Shown one piece after another: positions 3,905 to 30,962 of a DNA stretch of 64,000 nucleotides. A program made the translations under genes and the position numbers. The number at the start of each line of letters is the position of its first letter. Position 1 is the stretch's first letter. A model generated the notes under the pieces. The model had not been told where the DNA came from and searched no databases. It saw only the letters and a list, made by a program, of their open reading frames with translations. The stretch comes from a virus. The stretch lies in UHGV virus genome UHGV-0125682. One strand, written 5' to 3'.

Positions 3905-4231
3905 ATGTTTGCAGATTATGAAAATCTGGCTGTAGTAGTCATAACATCCCTACTAAGTGGAACCGGCGTATTCCTTCTCGGAGTTAGAGACGGGCGCATT
4001 TCTGCGTCCCTGCTCAATCTTGCGAGTGAATTGTTTACTGCGGTAACAGCCGGGCTTGCGGGGTATGGGGTGGCGGTTAGCCAAGAATGGCCTGAAGGTA
4101 TCATTTTCTGCGTTGTTCTGATTGCCAGTAACAACGGTAGTGAAATTTTACAGGGCTTGAAGTCCAGAGCTAGTAACGTCTTGAATCTCTTAAGCGTAAT
4201 AGCGAATGGGGGAAAAGGTGGAGAGAAATAA
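3905..4231 (+). CDS. lydA: Holin-like small membrane protein (P1 LydA-like by size and position)
   Basis: 108 aa with hydrophobic segments and charged C-terminus; AT-rich; RBS GGAGGGG; follows invertase as in P1. Confidence 0.5.
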   Translation: MFADYENLAVVVITSLLSGTGVFLLGVRDGRISASLLNLASELFTAVTAGLAGYGVAVSQEWPEGIIFCVVLIASNNGSEILQGLKSRASNVLNLLSVIANGGKGGEK

Positions 4232-4677
4232 TGGGTAACTTTGGAAATTATTTCATTTTTATCATGGCATTTGTTGCCATCATTGACCGTTTCATTTTTC
4301 GTCGCAAGAGTGTTGAGATTTTGAGTATTGGTGACGCTGTAGTGAAAGAATCCGCTATAGCATTTCCTGTTTCGCTACGTGTTAAGCGAAGCTGGGTCAG
4401 CAATGCTCAAATCGAATATTGGTTGCAAGACCTGAAAAATCCATCTGTGGTTATTTCAGGGAAAACGCGACCAGTTGACGCCTCAAAACGCGGTGAGAGA
4501 GAAGAGTATTTGCTCATCGATACGAAATATCTTGAGCCAACGAAGTGGGATCTGAAAGTCACATTGACTAACGGTAACTGTCGACTGAATCCGCTTTATC
4601 GCATTTTCCCTATCAATGACTGCATAGAGCGCCAGTTTACGATCGAAAAGCGTGAAGGAGACTGGGATGTCAAATAA
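4231..4677 (+). CDS. lydB: Antiholin-like protein (P1 LydB-like by size and position)
   Basis: 148 aa, N-terminal TM; ATG overlaps upstream stop (TAATG). Confidence 0.4.
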   Translation: MGNFGNYFIFIMAFVAIIDRFIFRRKSVEILSIGDAVVKESAIAFPVSLRVKRSWVSNAQIEYWLQDLKNPSVVISGKTRPVDASKRGEREEYLLIDTKYLEPTKWDLKVTLTNGNCRLNPLYRIFPINDCIERQFTIEKREGDWDVK

Positions 4678-27890: not shown

Positions 27891-27892
27891 TG

Positions 27893-27909
27893 TGTTAGAA
27901 ATCTAAAAT
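27893..27909 (+). promoter_or_regulatory. Operator-like motif (TGTTAGAAATCTAAAAT)
   Basis: Recurring motif at start of ORF-poor island. Confidence 0.4.
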
Positions 27910-28048
27910 CACAATTCGAATGTATTGATTGTGAAGGTAACTTAACATAGAATTTTCCTTGCTGGTGGGCGGTACCCACGTTTCGCTTGCTGGGCTTGAT
28001 AGTCACTTATTGGTTATTGTTCGCCCACCAGCATTTAACAAATTAAAG

Positions 28049-28065
28049 TGTTAGAAAAGTATAGT
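28049..28065 (+). promoter_or_regulatory. Operator-like motif (TGTTAGAAAAGTATAGT)
   Basis: Recurring motif. Confidence 0.35.
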
Positions 28066-28250
28066 AACGCAAGAGCACGCTTTGGCACCGTGCAGGCCAA
28101 AGTTCAGCAGGTTTAGTGCGGAAAGTGGTTTCAGAGAGAGCACTTTGCGGAGTAAACGACAATACATGTTGAGCCAAGGAAGGTCTTTTTAAGGTGTTTA
28201 TTGATGATGGTCCGGCAGAGAGTAACGGTACATGCTGCATCTAATCATCA

Positions 28251-28316
28251 ATGCACATCTTCAACATTAAGGAGGCATAGGGATTTTTGTGGCGGTTACC
28301 TTTTGCCCTGAGTCTC
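28251..28316. other. Long hairpin 1 (13-bp perfect stem CAACATTAAGGAG, 40-nt loop)
   Basis: Perfect inverted repeat; no credible ORF. Confidence 0.45.
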
Positions 28317-28543
28317 CTTAATGTTGCGGTAATGCACCTATGCGGATGTGGCCTTGCATTGTGTCTTGAAAGAATGGGGTAAGGCCGGGGATATCCCCAG
28401 GGGGAGGCACCCCCGCTGCAACGAACAGCCACAGACGGCAGTCGAGTGATGGAAACGTGCAAAGACTTTAAACCTCGTTACGGCTGGCGTGGCAAACGCG
28501 ACAACCGAGACAGAGCGGTGACGGGCGGAGAGAGTGCCGCATC

Positions 28544-28620
28544 AAGAAAGAAGCCGACTTGTGATCCCTTTCAGCGGGCATTTGAAAGTGAATCCAGCTC
28601 AGGCAGTCGGCTTCTTTCTT
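28544..28620. other. Long hairpin 2 (15-bp perfect stem AAGAAAGAAGCCGAC, 47-nt loop)
   Basis: Perfect inverted repeat with nested CTTTCA/TGAAAG; terminator 21 bp downstream. Confidence 0.45.
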
Positions 28621-28640
28621 GTGTGAGATGTAGCGTATTT

Positions 28641-28664
28641 GCCCATCTTCGGGTGGGCTTTTTT
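28641..28664 (+). terminator. Rho-independent terminator inside non-coding island
   Basis: GCCCATC-TTCG-GGTGGGC followed by TTTTTT. Confidence 0.6.
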
Positions 28665-28850
28665 AGGGTTTTCGTCATGGTTAGCGACTTTGCGGCGGTT
28701 TATAAACTGACCATTAAAGTAAATGCAAACGATGATCTGATGATGGTAGCGGCCTAAGAAGCCAGACGCCACGGGGTATGAGTCGTCCCCCGTCAAAAAA
28801 TCGACCGCAGAGTGTCCCCGTCTGTGTATTAGGGAACGGGGAGGCATAAC

Positions 28851-28923
28851 AGGCAAGGGCGCTGGTGTGATTAACCAGATGAATGAGAAGGGTCAGGTCT
28901 TTCTGGTCAGCGCCCTTACCTGT
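28851..28923. other. Long hairpin 3 (15-bp stem, one mismatch, 43-nt loop)
   Basis: CAGGCAAGGGCGCTG ... CAGCGCCCTTACCTG. Confidence 0.4.
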
Positions 28924-29124
28924 TACGTCCCTCCCGCGTAACAGCCATTGATTAATGGCTTTCTGGGATAACATCCTACTACGGGTATATCCCGTCATGC
29001 TGAAGGCGCTAATCACGCTGGAAGCCAGGGTTGTGCATCCCCTGTTACCGAATTGCAGCCAGGGCGCGGTGCGCCGAAAAGCATACGGAGGTGGAAGCCC
29101 TCGCCGGAGACGTACCCGGCAAGT

Positions 29125-29201
29125 GATGGTGTAGCTCAGTAGGATAGAGCAGCAGCCTTCTAAGCTGTCGGTCGGTGGTTCGAATCCACCCACCATCGCC
29201 A
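29125..29201 (+). tRNA. tRNA-Arg (anticodon TCT)
   Basis: Cloverleaf folded by hand: acceptor GATGGTG/CACCATC, D-arm GCTC..GAGC, anticodon loop CTTCTAA, T-loop TTCGAAT, 3' GCCA. Confidence 0.85.
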
Positions 29202-29203
29202 AT

Positions 29204-29279
29204 GCCGGTTTAGCTCAGTTGGTAGAGCGCCTGCCTTGTAAGCAGGATGTCAGCGGTTCGAGTCCGTTAACCGGCACCA
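29204..29279 (+). tRNA. tRNA-Thr (anticodon TGT)
   Basis: Acceptor GCCGGTT/AACCGGC, D-loop AGTTGGTA, anticodon loop CTTGTAA, T-loop TTCGAGT, 3' ACCA. Confidence 0.85.
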
Positions 29280-29288
29280 ACACAACAG

Positions 29289-29365
29289 GTAAGGGTATTT
29301 TGCGACGTCGGAGATCGCCGTGCTTGGCAGAGGGTTCGAATCCCTACGAAGTACCCTTACCGTTG
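29289..29365 (+). other. tRNA-like remnant / hairpin 4 (10-bp stem around canonical T-loop GGGTTCGAATCCC)
   Basis: GGTAAGGGTA...TACCCTTACC stem; has T-arm but no D-arm or anticodon arm. Confidence 0.4.
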
Positions 29366-29508
29366 TGATGAAGTGCAGCTCTTTGAAGCAACCAGAAGAT
29401 AAGCATCTGGCTTCACAACATAAACCGCAGGAACGACCAATAAACGGTAGTCCGTATGGAGAACACCCCGTTGAGGAAGAGGCCTGGCCGGAACCGTAAC
29501 CGGCACTA

Positions 29509-29598
29509 CAACGTTGAGAACACTGGCGTAACGGGGTCATATCCCAATCTATGAATAAATGTTGCGTTGCAGCGTGACAACCAGTGTTCTCAACATTG
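29509..29598. other. Long hairpin 5 (18-bp stem, one mismatch, 54-nt loop)
   Basis: CAACGTTGAGAACACTGG ... CCAGTGTTCTCAACATTG. Confidence 0.4.
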
Positions 29599-29917
29599 TG
29601 GTGAATGCGCAGGCTGATGCGCGAAAGACATTGCAGCTATTGCGGAAAAGAGCTGTTCGGCGGGGCAATTAAACGCCCGTGAGAGTCTGAAATAACCGCA
29701 AGCCGGAGATCAGCACCGGTCGCCACAATAACGGGAGAGTAGGGAGCATGGTGCTCAAGCAGTCTTGAAAACCGTCCCATTGCGCACGCGGAACAGTTAA
29801 AACAATCCTCCTTAGTGGTTAAGTCAAACATCCCGGCGTTAATTGTTAACTGGTTAACGTCACCTGGAGGCACCAGGCACCGCAGCTTTTTTATTCGTTA
29901 AATAATGGAGTGAGAGG

Positions 29918-30154
29918 ATGCAGAACAATCCGAACAAATGTCGAACGCTATGGGTGCGGTTATATATTTATGTCGTCCTCTGTTTGATTGTGTCACTGGT
30001 TCTGTATGTTTGGCTTTTGCCAAATATGATCTCATCTGACAGCACAATACTTGTATTGTTGGGAGTCCTTCTCGCGCTCATTTACCCGGCTTTTGCAGTA
30101 GTCTTTTTTCGTGAAAAAACCAGGAAATTGATTAATGAAAAAAACGTTGATTAG
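29918..30154 (+). CDS. Small membrane protein
   Basis: 78 aa, two hydrophobic helices; overlaps start of next gene. Confidence 0.45.
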   Translation: MQNNPNKCRTLWVRLYIYVVLCLIVSLVLYVWLLPNMISSDSTILVLLGVLLALIYPAFAVVFFREKTRKLINEKNVD

Positions 30155-30962
30155 TGCAGCGATTATTTTTGGTTCTTTATGTCTGACCGGATGCGACCGG
30201 GTAGAACCAGGCAATGTAGGGATCAAAGTAAATAAGCTGGGGGATGATAAAGGTGTCGGCGAAGTAGTTGGCGTTGGTCGCTACTGGACAGGCTGGAACA
30301 CAGAAGTTTATATCTTCCCGACCTTTAAGCAAATGAAGACCTATGATGATCCGTTCAGCTTCCAAATGAGCGACGGGACAACAATTGGTTACCACATTGG
30401 TGTAGCTTACAAGGTTGATCCGGCAAAAGTCACAACTGTATTTCAGACCTACCGCAAAGGCGTGGATGACATTACCGACACCGACCTGCGCCAGAAGATT
30501 GCCGACGCACTTAACCGACTGGCCAGCAAAATGACCACCGACAAATTTATCGACGGTGGCAAGTCTGAACTACTGGATGCAGCTCTTAAAGACATCCAGG
30601 AAGAAATGACGCCCATCGGTATTCAGGTAATGAGCCTCTCATATGTGGGCAAGCCGGAGTACCCGCCAACCGTTATCGACAGCATTAATGCCAAAGTCAC
30701 GGCGAACCAGAAAACTCTGCAACGCGAGCAGGAAGTCAAGCAACGCGAAGCAGAAGCCAACATGCTGCGCGCAGAAGCTGCCGGACAGGCCGATGCCATT
30801 CGCACAAAAGCCCAGGCTGAAGCTGATGCCATTCGTTTACGCGGTGAGGCTCTGCGCCAGAACCCCGGCGTTATGGAGTTGGAAGCGATCAACAAATGGA
30901 ACGGAACGCGACCGCAGTATATGACCAGTAATACCGCTGTTCCGTTTGTTCCGGTGAAATAA
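30135..30962 (+). CDS. SPFH/band-7-like lipoprotein (P1 Plp-like position near tRNAs)
   Basis: Lipobox LSAAIIFGSLCLTGC; coiled-coil A/E/Q/R-rich C-terminal region. Confidence 0.6.
   Translation: MKKTLISAAIIFGSLCLTGCDRVEPGNVGIKVNKLGDDKGVGEVVGVGRYWTGWNTEVYIFPTFKQMKTYDDPFSFQMSDGTTIGYHIGVAYKVDPAKVTTVFQTYRKGVDDITDTDLRQKIADALNRLASKMTTDKFIDGGKSELLDAALKDIQEEMTPIGIQVMSLSYVGKPEYPPTVIDSINAKVTANQKTLQREQEVKQREAEANMLRAEAAGQADAIRTKAQAEADAIRLRGEALRQNPGVMELEAINKWNGTRPQYMTSNTAVPFVPVK

Follow-up and report, generated by a model that had tools for sequence, protein, structure and literature searches.

A tmRNA-like phage RNA, predicted to pair with the host's tmRNA, in the non-coding island of a P1-like plasmid prophage

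Positions 27891-29900 of the virus genome UHGV-0125682 are a non-coding stretch of structured RNA around a pair of tRNA genes, which we will call the island. The window (the whole stretch of DNA that we analyzed, 64,000 nucleotides) belongs to the D6 lineage of P1-like plasmid prophages. Within the island, we identified a module of about 196 nt (28661-28856) that resembles transfer-messenger RNA (tmRNA) but has no tRNA-like domain. The module carries a frame for a ten-residue tag, and its 5' arm is, judging by alignment and predicted duplex energy, specifically complementary to the part of the host's tmRNA that encodes the host's own tag. We consider it a serious possibility, although short of probable, that the module anneals to the host's tmRNA, masks the tag template, and substitutes a phage tag.

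The tmRNA-like module and its antisense arm

A weak match to Rfam's tmRNA_permuted model (28652-28757, 25.4 bits) first pointed to the frame GCAAACGATGATCTGATGATGGTAGCGGCCTAA, which reads ANDDLMMVAA followed by a stop codon. Across members of the family, matches to this model have 25-34 bits, which is below the gathering score of 47. In five phage lineages that are not related to one another, tmRNA_permuted and beta_tmRNA match the same place below threshold, with the tag, the stop-codon hairpin, and pseudoknot 2 (PK2) all in alignment. This region of about 190 nt matches unannotated DNA in 198 phage records from several families: Ackermannviridae (Erwinia phage phiEa2809 and phages of Klebsiella and Serratia), Schitoviridae (ECBP1, Bp4, KP8, and Pylas), Drexlerviridae (CS01), and the P1-like phages. 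At least 120 contigs in IMG/VR contain the module, as do 780 of 5426 complete E. coli genomes (at 683 places on plasmids and 150 on chromosomes), and among the matches listed, none of the E. coli sites is annotated with a non-coding RNA or a tmRNA. Lambdoid prophages have the module between the genes for the Q antiterminator and the holin, either just 3' of PR'/tR' or directly after a strong promoter. Our covariance model for the module (R1) finds one copy per locus, including one in the window.

The tag frame has no start codon. In the window, it opens with a GCN resume codon that is preceded by U at -5 and A at -4 (UAAAU-GCA), and it closes with a hydrophobic residue, two alanines, and a stop. 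The arm ends exactly 12 nt before the phage's resume codon, and these 12 nt finish with U-A-A-A-U. E. coli tmRNA also has 12 nt between pseudoknot 1 (PK1) and its resume codon, and its frame is set by A86 (-4) and U85 (-5) (PMC2481249). The tag has ten codons and a stop in 126 of 127 matches, and the exception, a viral contig from IMG/VR (L110; L numbers are our labels for the records and contigs that we compared), is a genuine tmRNA. We found 30 nucleotide versions of the frame that encode 17 ten-residue peptides (including ANDDVVLMAA, ANDEQFLAVA, and ANEEMYLAVA), with zero indels. ANDDVVLMAA is encoded in 7 synonymous ways, and variation at the third position dominates in codons 3, 4, 9, and 10. 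The frame is intact in over 120 loci from five phage lineages. Because P1, D6, and nearly all of their relatives have an in-frame UAG eight codons 5' of the tag, the tag has no ordinary start in most members. The module has apparently been selected as a translated template.

We did consider a conventional small open reading frame (ORF) of 26 amino acids that ends in the tag, but it is not conserved, given the UAG. TAT replaces this UAG at 28692-28694 of the window, and likewise in a few further P1-like contigs (L040 and L069); the change creates an ORF of that length with an ATG start (28668-28757).

To score the arm, we used ssrA from a RefSeq genome of E. coli as the target, along with 4052 background windows. 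The window's arm forms a predicted duplex of -43.7 kcal/mol with tmRNA, and none of the 4052 background windows is as good. The arms of the P1 type, both lambdoid types, and the N4-like type have energies of -40 to -46 kcal/mol, and 0-2 of the background windows are as good. Within tmRNA, the target runs from the 3' half of PK1 through the resume codon to tag codon 6. The paired blocks are GGUUGG, UAAAAA, and GCCGCAA on the 3' side of PK1; AGUCGC, which runs from A86 through the resume codon; and GACGAAAACU in tag codons 3-6. For example, the reverse complement of tmRNA, CGUAGUUUUCGUCGUUUGCGACUAUUUUUUGCGGCUUUUUACGAGGCCAACC, aligns with the lambdoid type as C--AGUUUUCGUCACGUUAGCGAC-----UUUGCGGACUUUUUA-GAAACUGACC. 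The N4-like arm, GCGAUUAUGCGG, has a different sequence that keeps the complementarity in a shifted register. No part of the family varies less than the arm.

The complementarity also goes beyond what the arm finds in its own RNA. In all 69 distinct elements, the arm prefers the host's tmRNA over the element's own tag region, by an average of 23.9 kcal/mol, and the targeted GAAAAC or GUCGCA is found in no phage tag. Synthetic oligonucleotides against tmRNA suppress trans-translation in vitro (PMC3384345), and both the pseudoknots and the tag sequence of E. coli tmRNA can be replaced without loss of function (PMC2481249).

Downstream of the arm, the tag's stop codon lies inside a hairpin, which is followed by two H-type pseudoknots, and the first of these (pseudoknot a) aligns with positions 270-304 of beta_tmRNA. 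There are compensatory changes in 18 of the module's 22 pairs, and within the two pseudoknots, 14 of 18 pairs have changed on both sides. Paired cells amount to 89.2%, as compared to 77.8% in shuffles. The covariation score is 0.337, as compared to 0.162 for shuffles (none of 500 reached 0.337) and at most 0.14 for slid controls. Taken together with the matches to tmRNA models, these results indicate that the family descends from tmRNA and is under selection as RNA.

The module lacks a tRNA-like domain. With default thresholds, ARAGORN does not find a tmRNA in the window or in D6, P1, CS01, phiEa2809, ECBP1, or Pylas. The standard tmRNA model (RF00023, whose gathering score is also 47 bits) has no match in the window at E up to 10, and it has an 11-bit partial match in a lambdoid relative. 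At a threshold of 80%, ARAGORN does report permuted tmRNAs with the right tag, but we rejected these, as their tRNA-like halves lie in non-conserved sequence that is found only in D6. We also looked for a partner that could supply the missing half. A hairpin cassette with a T arm (29281-29368 in the window, described below) is not an obligatory acceptor, as at 22 of 91 loci, no tRNA and no orphan T arm lies within 2.5 kb of the module. We sought complements of GCGACUUUGCGG at every locus, as a partner in cis for the module's 5' region, and found none at a consistent position. Similarly, we rejected a PK1-like pseudoknot inside the arm (GUUUU/GAAAC and CUUUG/CAAAG), as these positions are either invariant or out of register between lineages.

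L110 may represent the ancestral form of the phage family. Positions 4127-4477 of this contig are a complete two-piece tmRNA of the alpha type (121.6 bits for alpha_tmRNA, with tag ANDNVASRYALAA), and it has the context ACCA..UAAAUGCAAACGA in common with the truncated phage family. The phage module begins at about the GAUAG strand of L110's outermost helix, past the acceptor strand, the D-loop, and the helix-2 strand.

Some loci are unusual. A P1-like contig (L027, 975-1025 and 2347-2464) has a degenerate copy of the module, with the antisense arm swapped for unrelated sequence and pseudoknot a deleted. In ECBP1 (L005), the module is flanked by two odd tRNA-like genes (2310-2381 and 2673-2751), which ARAGORN reports as Ala(cgc) and Cys(aca); in the record, one of the two is a pseudo-tRNA. 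Similar tRNA-like genes lie 3' of the module in L071 and L101.

What the module might do

Under the mechanism that we propose, the island would be a co-transcribed array of stable structured RNAs, without any protein genes, between pmgS and the next coding genes. The array would include two tRNAs, one truncated tRNA, several long-stem cassettes, and the tmRNA-derived RNA. The 46-nt arm of this RNA would pair with the 3' half of the host tmRNA's PK1, the nucleotides that set the frame, the resume codon, and six tag codons, so that the host's template is masked. Through the same pairing, the phage RNA would be tethered to the tRNA-like domain of the host, which is charged with alanine. Just 12 nt past the duplex, the phage RNA would present its own resume context (U-5, A-4, and GCA), its ten-codon tag, and two pseudoknots, and rescued ribosomes would add ANDDLMMVAA instead of ANDENYALAA. 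Annealing in the cell, use of the template, and a benefit to the phage are all suppositions on our part. Because the phage tags end in VAA, MAA, or AVA rather than LAA, the purpose could be to alter degradation signals.

Several points weigh against this mechanism. All of the hosts that we could identify are Enterobacterales, and their tmRNAs are nearly identical in the arm's target region. The arm of the Erwinia-phage type has a 6-nt insertion, which predicts a host tag with CGAGAACGAAAAC, and we found no such tmRNA in 185,579 genomes. Against E. coli tmRNA, this arm is less exceptional (14 of 4052 windows are as good). The arm's first 7-9 nt are, in many phages, taken up by cis pairing with a strand of the upstream hairpin. 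In the P1 type, a terminator-like hairpin lies directly 5' of the module, so synthesis of the RNA needs read-through or another start. PK1 of the host would have to open for annealing, and we know of no demonstration that a ribosome can resume on a template that is held solely by a duplex at this position. As for conservation, we gathered the IMG/VR members with a pattern that fixes the length of the linker and the first 8 nt of the tag, so the constancy of these features is partly by construction; the members that were found by BLAST agree with the pattern-found ones in both. Also, the ratio of nonsynonymous to synonymous polymorphism (pN/pS) for the tag is only 0.65, and because part of the tag is inside a helix, constraint at the RNA level contributes to its conservation.

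The main rival is that the module is purely an inhibitor or sponge for tmRNA, which we think is less likely, although plausible. The arm would block tagging or rescue, and the frame and the pseudoknots would not be translated but would act as a scaffold, give stability, or serve as a decoy for SmpB or S1. The evidence for complementarity fits this idea just as well, the synthetic anti-ssrA oligonucleotide is a precedent for it, and the missing tRNA-like domain and the modest pN/pS are what an inhibitor might show. But an inhibitor does not explain why there are always ten codons and a stop, without any indel, even though the lineages differ at about half of the middle positions. Nor does it explain why identical peptides occur in up to 7 synonymous versions, why the U-5/A-4/GCA context and the 12-nt spacing are kept, or why the phage tags avoid the sequence that the arm targets.

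It seems improbable that the module is instead the coding piece of a split tmRNA that is encoded entirely by the phage. In that case, the acceptor would be another phage RNA, such as 29281-29368 after processing of the RNase P/Z type and the addition of CCA, and the antisense likeness would be incidental. It is true that the closest Rfam models are the permuted ones, that the two-piece tmRNA of L110 has the same resume context, that T-arm cassettes adjoin the module in some phages (L012, L034, L068, and L074), and that the hairpin 5' of the module is closed by CUAUC...GAUAG, which corresponds to the outermost helix of the permuted model. However, these upstream hairpins have tops that show no relationship from one phage to another. 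The T-arm cassette carries U3.G70 instead of G3.U70, lacks an encoded CCA, and has a closed and very long stem, and in the window, 430 nt and two tRNAs separate it from the module. Both the 22 loci that lack a tRNA or T arm and the lack of a cis complement to the module's 5' region also argue against it.

A third idea, which is near the view of an earlier note on this DNA, is that the island is evolutionary debris: a graveyard of decayed tRNA and tmRNA genes and scars of recombination around two live tRNAs. One tRNA is indeed truncated, the first tRNA of the pair has been exchanged (it is Asn in D6 and P1 and Arg in the window), some of the pieces are shared with unrelated phages, and degenerate copies of the module such as that in L027 do exist. 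This idea is already disfavoured, and we give it little credence, as debris would not be expected to show compensatory changes in most of the module's pairs and in the cassette stems, a ratio of 172 G.U pairs to 7 A.C mismatches in those stems, an intact tag frame in so many loci and lineages, or presence in 780 of 5426 E. coli genomes.

Finally, the minus strand might encode proteins (the P1 genes plp and upl, or an ORF of 162 amino acids), or the hairpins might act as DNA (attC-like sites or miniature inverted-repeat transposable elements). The case for this is that P1's plp and upl are annotated, that phrog_27020 matches residues 69-136 of the 162-amino-acid ORF (28714-29202, minus strand; E 2.5e-45), and that the hairpins, as imperfect palindromes with an extrahelical base, have a superficial likeness to attC sites. 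The function of this PHROG family is unknown, and because PHROGs are derived from predicted ORFs, the match tells us only that others have called the same ORF; no ORF of the island has a Pfam domain, and we rejected protein coding. We find this explanation very hard to credit, as the ORFs overlap tRNA genes and cross helices with compensatory changes, the window's plp ORF (29250-29540, minus strand) has 96 amino acids as compared to the 125 codons implied by P1's annotated coordinates, the frequent G.U pairs of the plus strand would be A.C mismatches on the other strand, all modules are oriented as the tRNAs are, and there is no adjacent integrase. In P1 (L002, 4618-5187), plp and upl lie opposite conserved, compensating RNA structures, and plp overlaps trnT; they are probably not real genes.

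If the phage RNA does substitute its tag for the host's, then a broader reading becomes possible, although we hold it a little more tentatively. Many phages of enterobacteria (i.e., P1-like plasmid prophages, lambdoid prophages, and N4-like, ViI-like, and T1-like phages) would use an RNA of roughly 190 nt to form a natural hybrid two-piece tmRNA, part host and part virus, that hijacks trans-translation. The hairpin cassettes, including a mimic of the tRNA elbow, would be a further toolkit of RNAs that are directed at translation and come from one processed transcript. Rescue of ribosomes by tmRNA is nearly universal in bacteria, and it affects the growth of several phages, including lambda-P22 hybrids and Mu. 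Plaque formation by lambda-P22 has been used to assay tmRNA function (PMC2481249). If the mechanism is correct, phages have a large class of RNAs that has gone unannotated and that rewrites the tag by which the host's quality control marks proteins for degradation, and this class is present in about one in seven complete genomes of E. coli and in families of therapeutic phages. Virus and host would then be in conflict over translation at a new level. The system would also be a natural example of a tmRNA that is assembled in trans and a ready-made tool for retargeting ssrA tagging. Annotations would need to be corrected, as plp and upl of P1 would not be genes, and the "empty" gaps beside phage tRNA clusters and in the lambdoid leader between Q and holin would hold RNA genes.

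The rest of the island

The features of the island are listed in Table 1. The island is a mosaic of RNA genes, with pieces that are common to unrelated phages. Overall, phage D6 matches 91% of the interval at 97.6% identity, and P1, P7, RCS47, and SJ46 are homologous from 28638 up to about 29620-29730. The earlier note, which was made by a model from the sequence alone, had suggested a comparison with the tRNA region of P1, and the kinship is clear: 28638-29619 is syntenic with P1 at 93.5% identity, and this covers the tmRNA-like module, one cassette, both tRNA positions, and the T-arm cassette. That note also described about 2 kb without a credible ORF, which we can confirm. No plus-strand ORF in the interval is over 103 amino acids, and the longest ones cross tRNA genes or hairpins.

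The gene order in the window is darB-ulx-pmgM-pmgS, the island, a small membrane-protein ORF and a lipoprotein gene of the SPFH/band-7 family, tRNA-Met(CAU), two ORFs, and lpa-pacAB. In P1, the homologous block lies 3' of the C1-controlled promoter/operator Pban-Op72 (dmt/Pban-Op72) and 5' of tciABC-trnI-ban. The window differs from this leader of the ban operon: as in D6, its block sits between pmgS and the SPFH lipoprotein gene, trnI, and lpa-pacAB, and P1-type operators are absent. The P1 record places plp and upl over the RNA structures and leaves the tmRNA-like module unannotated. The SPFH/band-7 gene (30135-30962; Pfam E 8e-31) and the small membrane-protein ORF (29918-30154) replace tciA and tciB of D6 and P1.

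Table 1. Features of the island, in window coordinates
Feature	Coordinates	Strand	Basis or remark
Copy of repeated regulatory motif, GTGTTAGAAATCTAAAA	27892..27908	+	Left edge; motif counts in window
Sigma-70-like promoter, TTGATT-17-TAGAAT (candidate)	27925..27953	+	Consensus scan; alone not above chance
Long-stem hairpin, 12-bp perfect stem	27960..28033	+	z -4.4, 0/200 shuffles; D6 lineage only
Second copy of motif core, GTGTTAGAAA	28048..28057	+	Motif scan
Imperfect long hairpin, 20-position stem	28191..28261	+	Fold search
Long-stem hairpin no. 1, closed by CAACA...TGTTG	28262..28326	+	z -5.2
Long-stem hairpin no. 2, 17 perfect pairs	28543..28621	+	z -4.6
Intrinsic-terminator-like hairpin, C(UUCG)G tetraloop and U-run	28641..28664	+	Consensus scan; common to P1
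tmRNA-derived module without tRNA-like domain, whole element, ~196 nt	28661..28856	+	Covariance model R1, 145.9 bits, E 5e-43
Antisense arm, 46 nt, near reverse complement of E. coli tmRNA nt 57-106	28667..28712	+	Alignment, duplex energy
12-nt single-stranded linker AUUAAAGUAAAU, U at -5, A at -4	28713..28724	+	Sequence
Tag frame, GCA AAC GAT GAT CTG ATG ATG GTA GCG GCC TAA = ANDDLMMVAA and stop	28725..28757	+	Sequence, conservation
Pseudoknot a: stem 1 28771-76/28788-93, stem 2 28782-85/28802-05	28771..28806	+	Covariation; aligns with PK2 of beta-type tmRNA
Pseudoknot b: stem 1 28806-11/28821-26, stem 2 28816-20/28837-41	28806..28841	+	Covariation
Long-stem cassette no. 3, UAACAGGCAAGGGCGCUG...CAGCGCCCUUACCUGUUA	28843..28929	+	z -5.5
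tRNA-Arg(UCU)	29125..29201	+	ARAGORN (tct); Rfam 72.1 bits
tRNA-Thr(UGU)	29204..29279	+	ARAGORN (tgt); Rfam 74.9 bits
Long-stem cassette no. 4, tRNA-elbow mimic top, contains GGGTTCGAATCCC	29281..29368	+	z -5.6
Short module GUUGUGAUGAAG...CUUCACAAC	29362..29419	+	Common to P22-like and other phages
Long-stem cassette no. 5, 23-position stem	29504..29603	+	z -6.9
Module closed by GUGGUG...CACCAC	29598..29726	+	95-99% identity with lambdoid and Stx phages (L011, L013, L128)
Truncated tRNA-Ser(UGA) pseudogene, 5' 48 nt only	29734..29781	+	Alignment with intact D6 tRNA-Ser
3' boundary segment, hairpin and U-run	29782..29895	+	About 81% identity to DNA of unrelated coliphages

We folded each hairpin and compared it to 200 dinucleotide shuffles. 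The five long hairpins that had been noticed before are all real, and they lie within a few bases of where they had been placed (z from -4.6 to -6.9; 0 of 200 shuffles as good). The whole 64-kb window has ten long-stem hairpins, and five of them cluster in 1.4 kb here. Beyond these five, there are two others (27960-28033 and 28191-28261), and the spacers between the hairpins do not have significant structure z-scores. In other phages, a long hairpin comes just before the tmRNA-like module, and hairpin no. 2 stands at the corresponding place.

Cassettes no. 3, 4, and 5 have a common design with hairpins of P1, lambdoid prophages, and N4-like phages: a 5' arm of (C)ACAAC-A-GG-U-AAGAGC-AUU, a variable cargo of 40-150 nt, and a 3' arm of AGU-GCUCUU-U-CC-GUUGU(G), with a conserved bulged A and a conserved U.U mismatch. 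The N4-like version, CUAUCAAUGAGUACAUU...AGUGUACUCUUUGAUAG, covaries, and cassette no. 3 has a compensatory change from U-A to C-G relative to P1. The stems of 70 distinct cassettes have 172 G.U pairs and 7 A.C mismatches. Therefore the fold has been selected on the plus strand, which is the strand of the tRNAs, and the cassettes are maintained RNA structures rather than wrecks. We suspect that their long and irregular stems are sites for processing or for recognition by proteins, which would free stable RNAs from one transcript. When we searched the cassettes of the island and of the lambdoid leader against Rfam, no family scored above noise, including DicF, YrlA, GOLLD, ROOL, IsrK, and STnc.

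The top of cassette no. 4 has a D-like hairpin and a T arm, GAGGG-UUCGAAU-CCCUA, that abuts the closing stem. The earlier note took its T-loop as the sign of a decayed tRNA gene, which we do not accept. Other phages have the conserved top (GCGACGYCGGAGAUCGCC-linker-AGAGGGUUCGAAUCCCUAC) as well, on four different closing stems, each of which compensates. The hairpin has no anticodon arm, it has a closing stem of 20 bp, and it is not recognized as a tRNA by ARAGORN (at default or 90% thresholds) or by Rfam. It is a maintained mimic of the tRNA elbow, with an architecture like that of YrlA. What survives of the earlier interpretation is the structured non-coding island, with a left edge that has a motif and a promoter-like site; the hairpins as decayed tRNA genes do not.

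The 5' arms of cassettes start with CACAACA (for example, 29281-29287 and those in L011, L013, and L128), which is the target consensus of the R1 seed of GcvB, as used by the prophage anti-sRNA (small RNA) AgvB (PMC4104026). Also, the cassette's 3' arm and the bases that follow (CGUUGUGAUG) resemble GcvB R1 itself. As both motifs are buried in stems, the likeness may be a coincidence. The module closed by GUGGUG...CACCAC contains two hairpins with complementary loops (GCUGAU/AUCAGC).

Both tRNAs of the pair had been recognized before, and ARAGORN and Rfam agree on them. Each is above Rfam's gathering score, and we take both to be functional. The first tRNA of the pair is Arg(UCU) in the window and Asn(GUU) in D6 (L001, 5235-5310) and in P1 (L002, 4494-4569). 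The acceptor stem, the T arm, and the flanks are nearly identical between the two, while the D and anticodon arms differ, so this looks like an internal exchange of tRNA identity. The Arg version is also found in some P1-like contigs from IMG/VR (for example, L007). In D6, the pair is followed by an intact tRNA-Ser(UGA), and relative to D6, the window has lost the T arm and the 3' acceptor strand of this tRNA by a deletion of 166 bp between GCGCA repeats. The remnant (29734-29781) is the one real decayed tRNA in the island. Thus there is turnover of tRNAs, although elsewhere than had been thought: the earlier note missed the truncated tRNA-Ser, along with the anti-tmRNA module, which is the island's most important content. 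The tRNA-Ser genes of rV5-like phages match the remnant at about 92%. In the D6 record (MF356679), the tRNAs are annotated on the strand opposite to ARAGORN's calls, which is likely a strand error in the deposit.

At the left edge, "operator-like" motifs had been reported. These are repeated far beyond expectation, but they are not the operators of P1: the 17-bp consensus of the P1 C1 operator, ATTGCTCTAATAAATTT, has no match in the 64 kb, even with up to 3 mismatches allowed. The core, GTGTTAGAAA, occurs 15 times in the window as compared to 3.8 expected, including the copies at 27892 and 28048, and an extended form of 16 nt, TGTTAGAAANNTAANT, occurs 10 times as compared to 0.16 expected (including 14494, 15700, 26644, 37062, 38472, 49763/49784, 54990, and 55641). 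The extended form is often 20-40 nt 5' of the start of an ORF, and there is one inverted pair. The motif is probably either the D6 lineage's counterpart of the P1 operators or a box of late promoters. The reported terminator inside the island was recovered by our consensus scan as a terminator-like hairpin. It is GCCCATC-TTCG-GGTGGGC followed by T6, which is a G+C-rich stem of 7 bp with a UUCG loop and a U-run, as in intrinsic terminators. Its counterpart in P1 overlaps an annotated "dicF-like region."

Comparison with known systems

Cassette no. 4 can be compared to YrlA, a Y RNA that mimics tRNA (RF02553). In YrlA, a long stem made from both ends of the RNA is topped by a T arm and a D-like hairpin (PMC4201824), and the cassette likewise has a long end-to-end stem with these two elements on top. 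Unlike YrlA, the cassette sets its T arm against the closing stem, as in a minihelix of the acceptor and T arms. RF02553 does not match the cassette at E up to 10 (a neighbouring Ro60/Rsr gene was not searched for), and the only match for this model is to the T arm of a true tRNA, with 24.4 bits as compared to a gathering score of 69.

AgvB and AsxR are, like the module of lambdoid prophages, phage RNAs from the leader of the lambdoid late operon, downstream of PR', and they neutralise a host RNA by base-pairing (PMC4104026), as the module would under our proposal. Unlike the module, they are Hfq-dependent sRNAs of 51-60 nt, with other sequences, and their targets are sRNAs rather than tmRNA (PMC4104026). 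The CACAACA motif of the cassettes is buried in a stem, which also sets the cassettes apart from AgvB and AsxR.

The anti-ssrA oligonucleotide that is used in cell-free translation and ribosome display is similar to the arm in that both are complementary to the tag-template region of tmRNA. Specifically, (U)AGUUUUCGUC...GCGACU in the arm overlaps what we take to be the region that the oligonucleotide targets. The phage RNA is natural, it reaches into PK1, and it is fused to a replacement template.

Standard tmRNA (ssrA, RF00023) has an mRNA-like domain, U-5 and A-4, and a spacing of 12 nt between a helical element and the resume codon, and the module is similar in all of these. The module also has a ten-codon tag of the enterobacterial type and pseudoknots after the tag. 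It differs in that it has no tRNA-like domain, G3.U70, CCA, PK1, or PK4; is not detected by ARAGORN; and has about 196 nt instead of 363. It is also encoded by phages, from at least four families (Ackermannviridae, Schitoviridae, Drexlerviridae, and the P1-like phages) and by lambdoid prophages.

The coding piece of the two-piece or permuted tmRNAs (RF04321, RF01849, and RF01850) has the same resume context as the module (UAAAU-GCA-AAC-GA), a short tag that begins Ala-Asn-Asp and ends in Ala-Ala or Val-Ala, a UAA in a hairpin, and then a pseudoknot that aligns with PK2. In both cases (for the module, under our proposal), a separate RNA needs to pair with a partner that bears the tRNA-like domain. 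Unlike these tmRNAs, the module scores below the gathering threshold, no acceptor piece is encoded, and the parts for binding such a piece (the 5' acceptor strand, the analogue of the D-loop, and the helix-2 strand) are absent. Instead, the module's 5' end is antisense to the template region of the host's tmRNA.

In the searchable full-text literature, we found nothing on tmRNA-like RNAs in phages of this kind, on P1 and tmRNA, on the tag peptides, or on natural RNAs against tmRNA, and no viral factor that reprograms or blocks tmRNA by base-pairing has been reported there. Complete tmRNAs in phages were already known, as were two-piece tmRNAs. What is new is a derivative of tmRNA that has no tRNA-like domain and has an arm that is directed at the tmRNA of the host.

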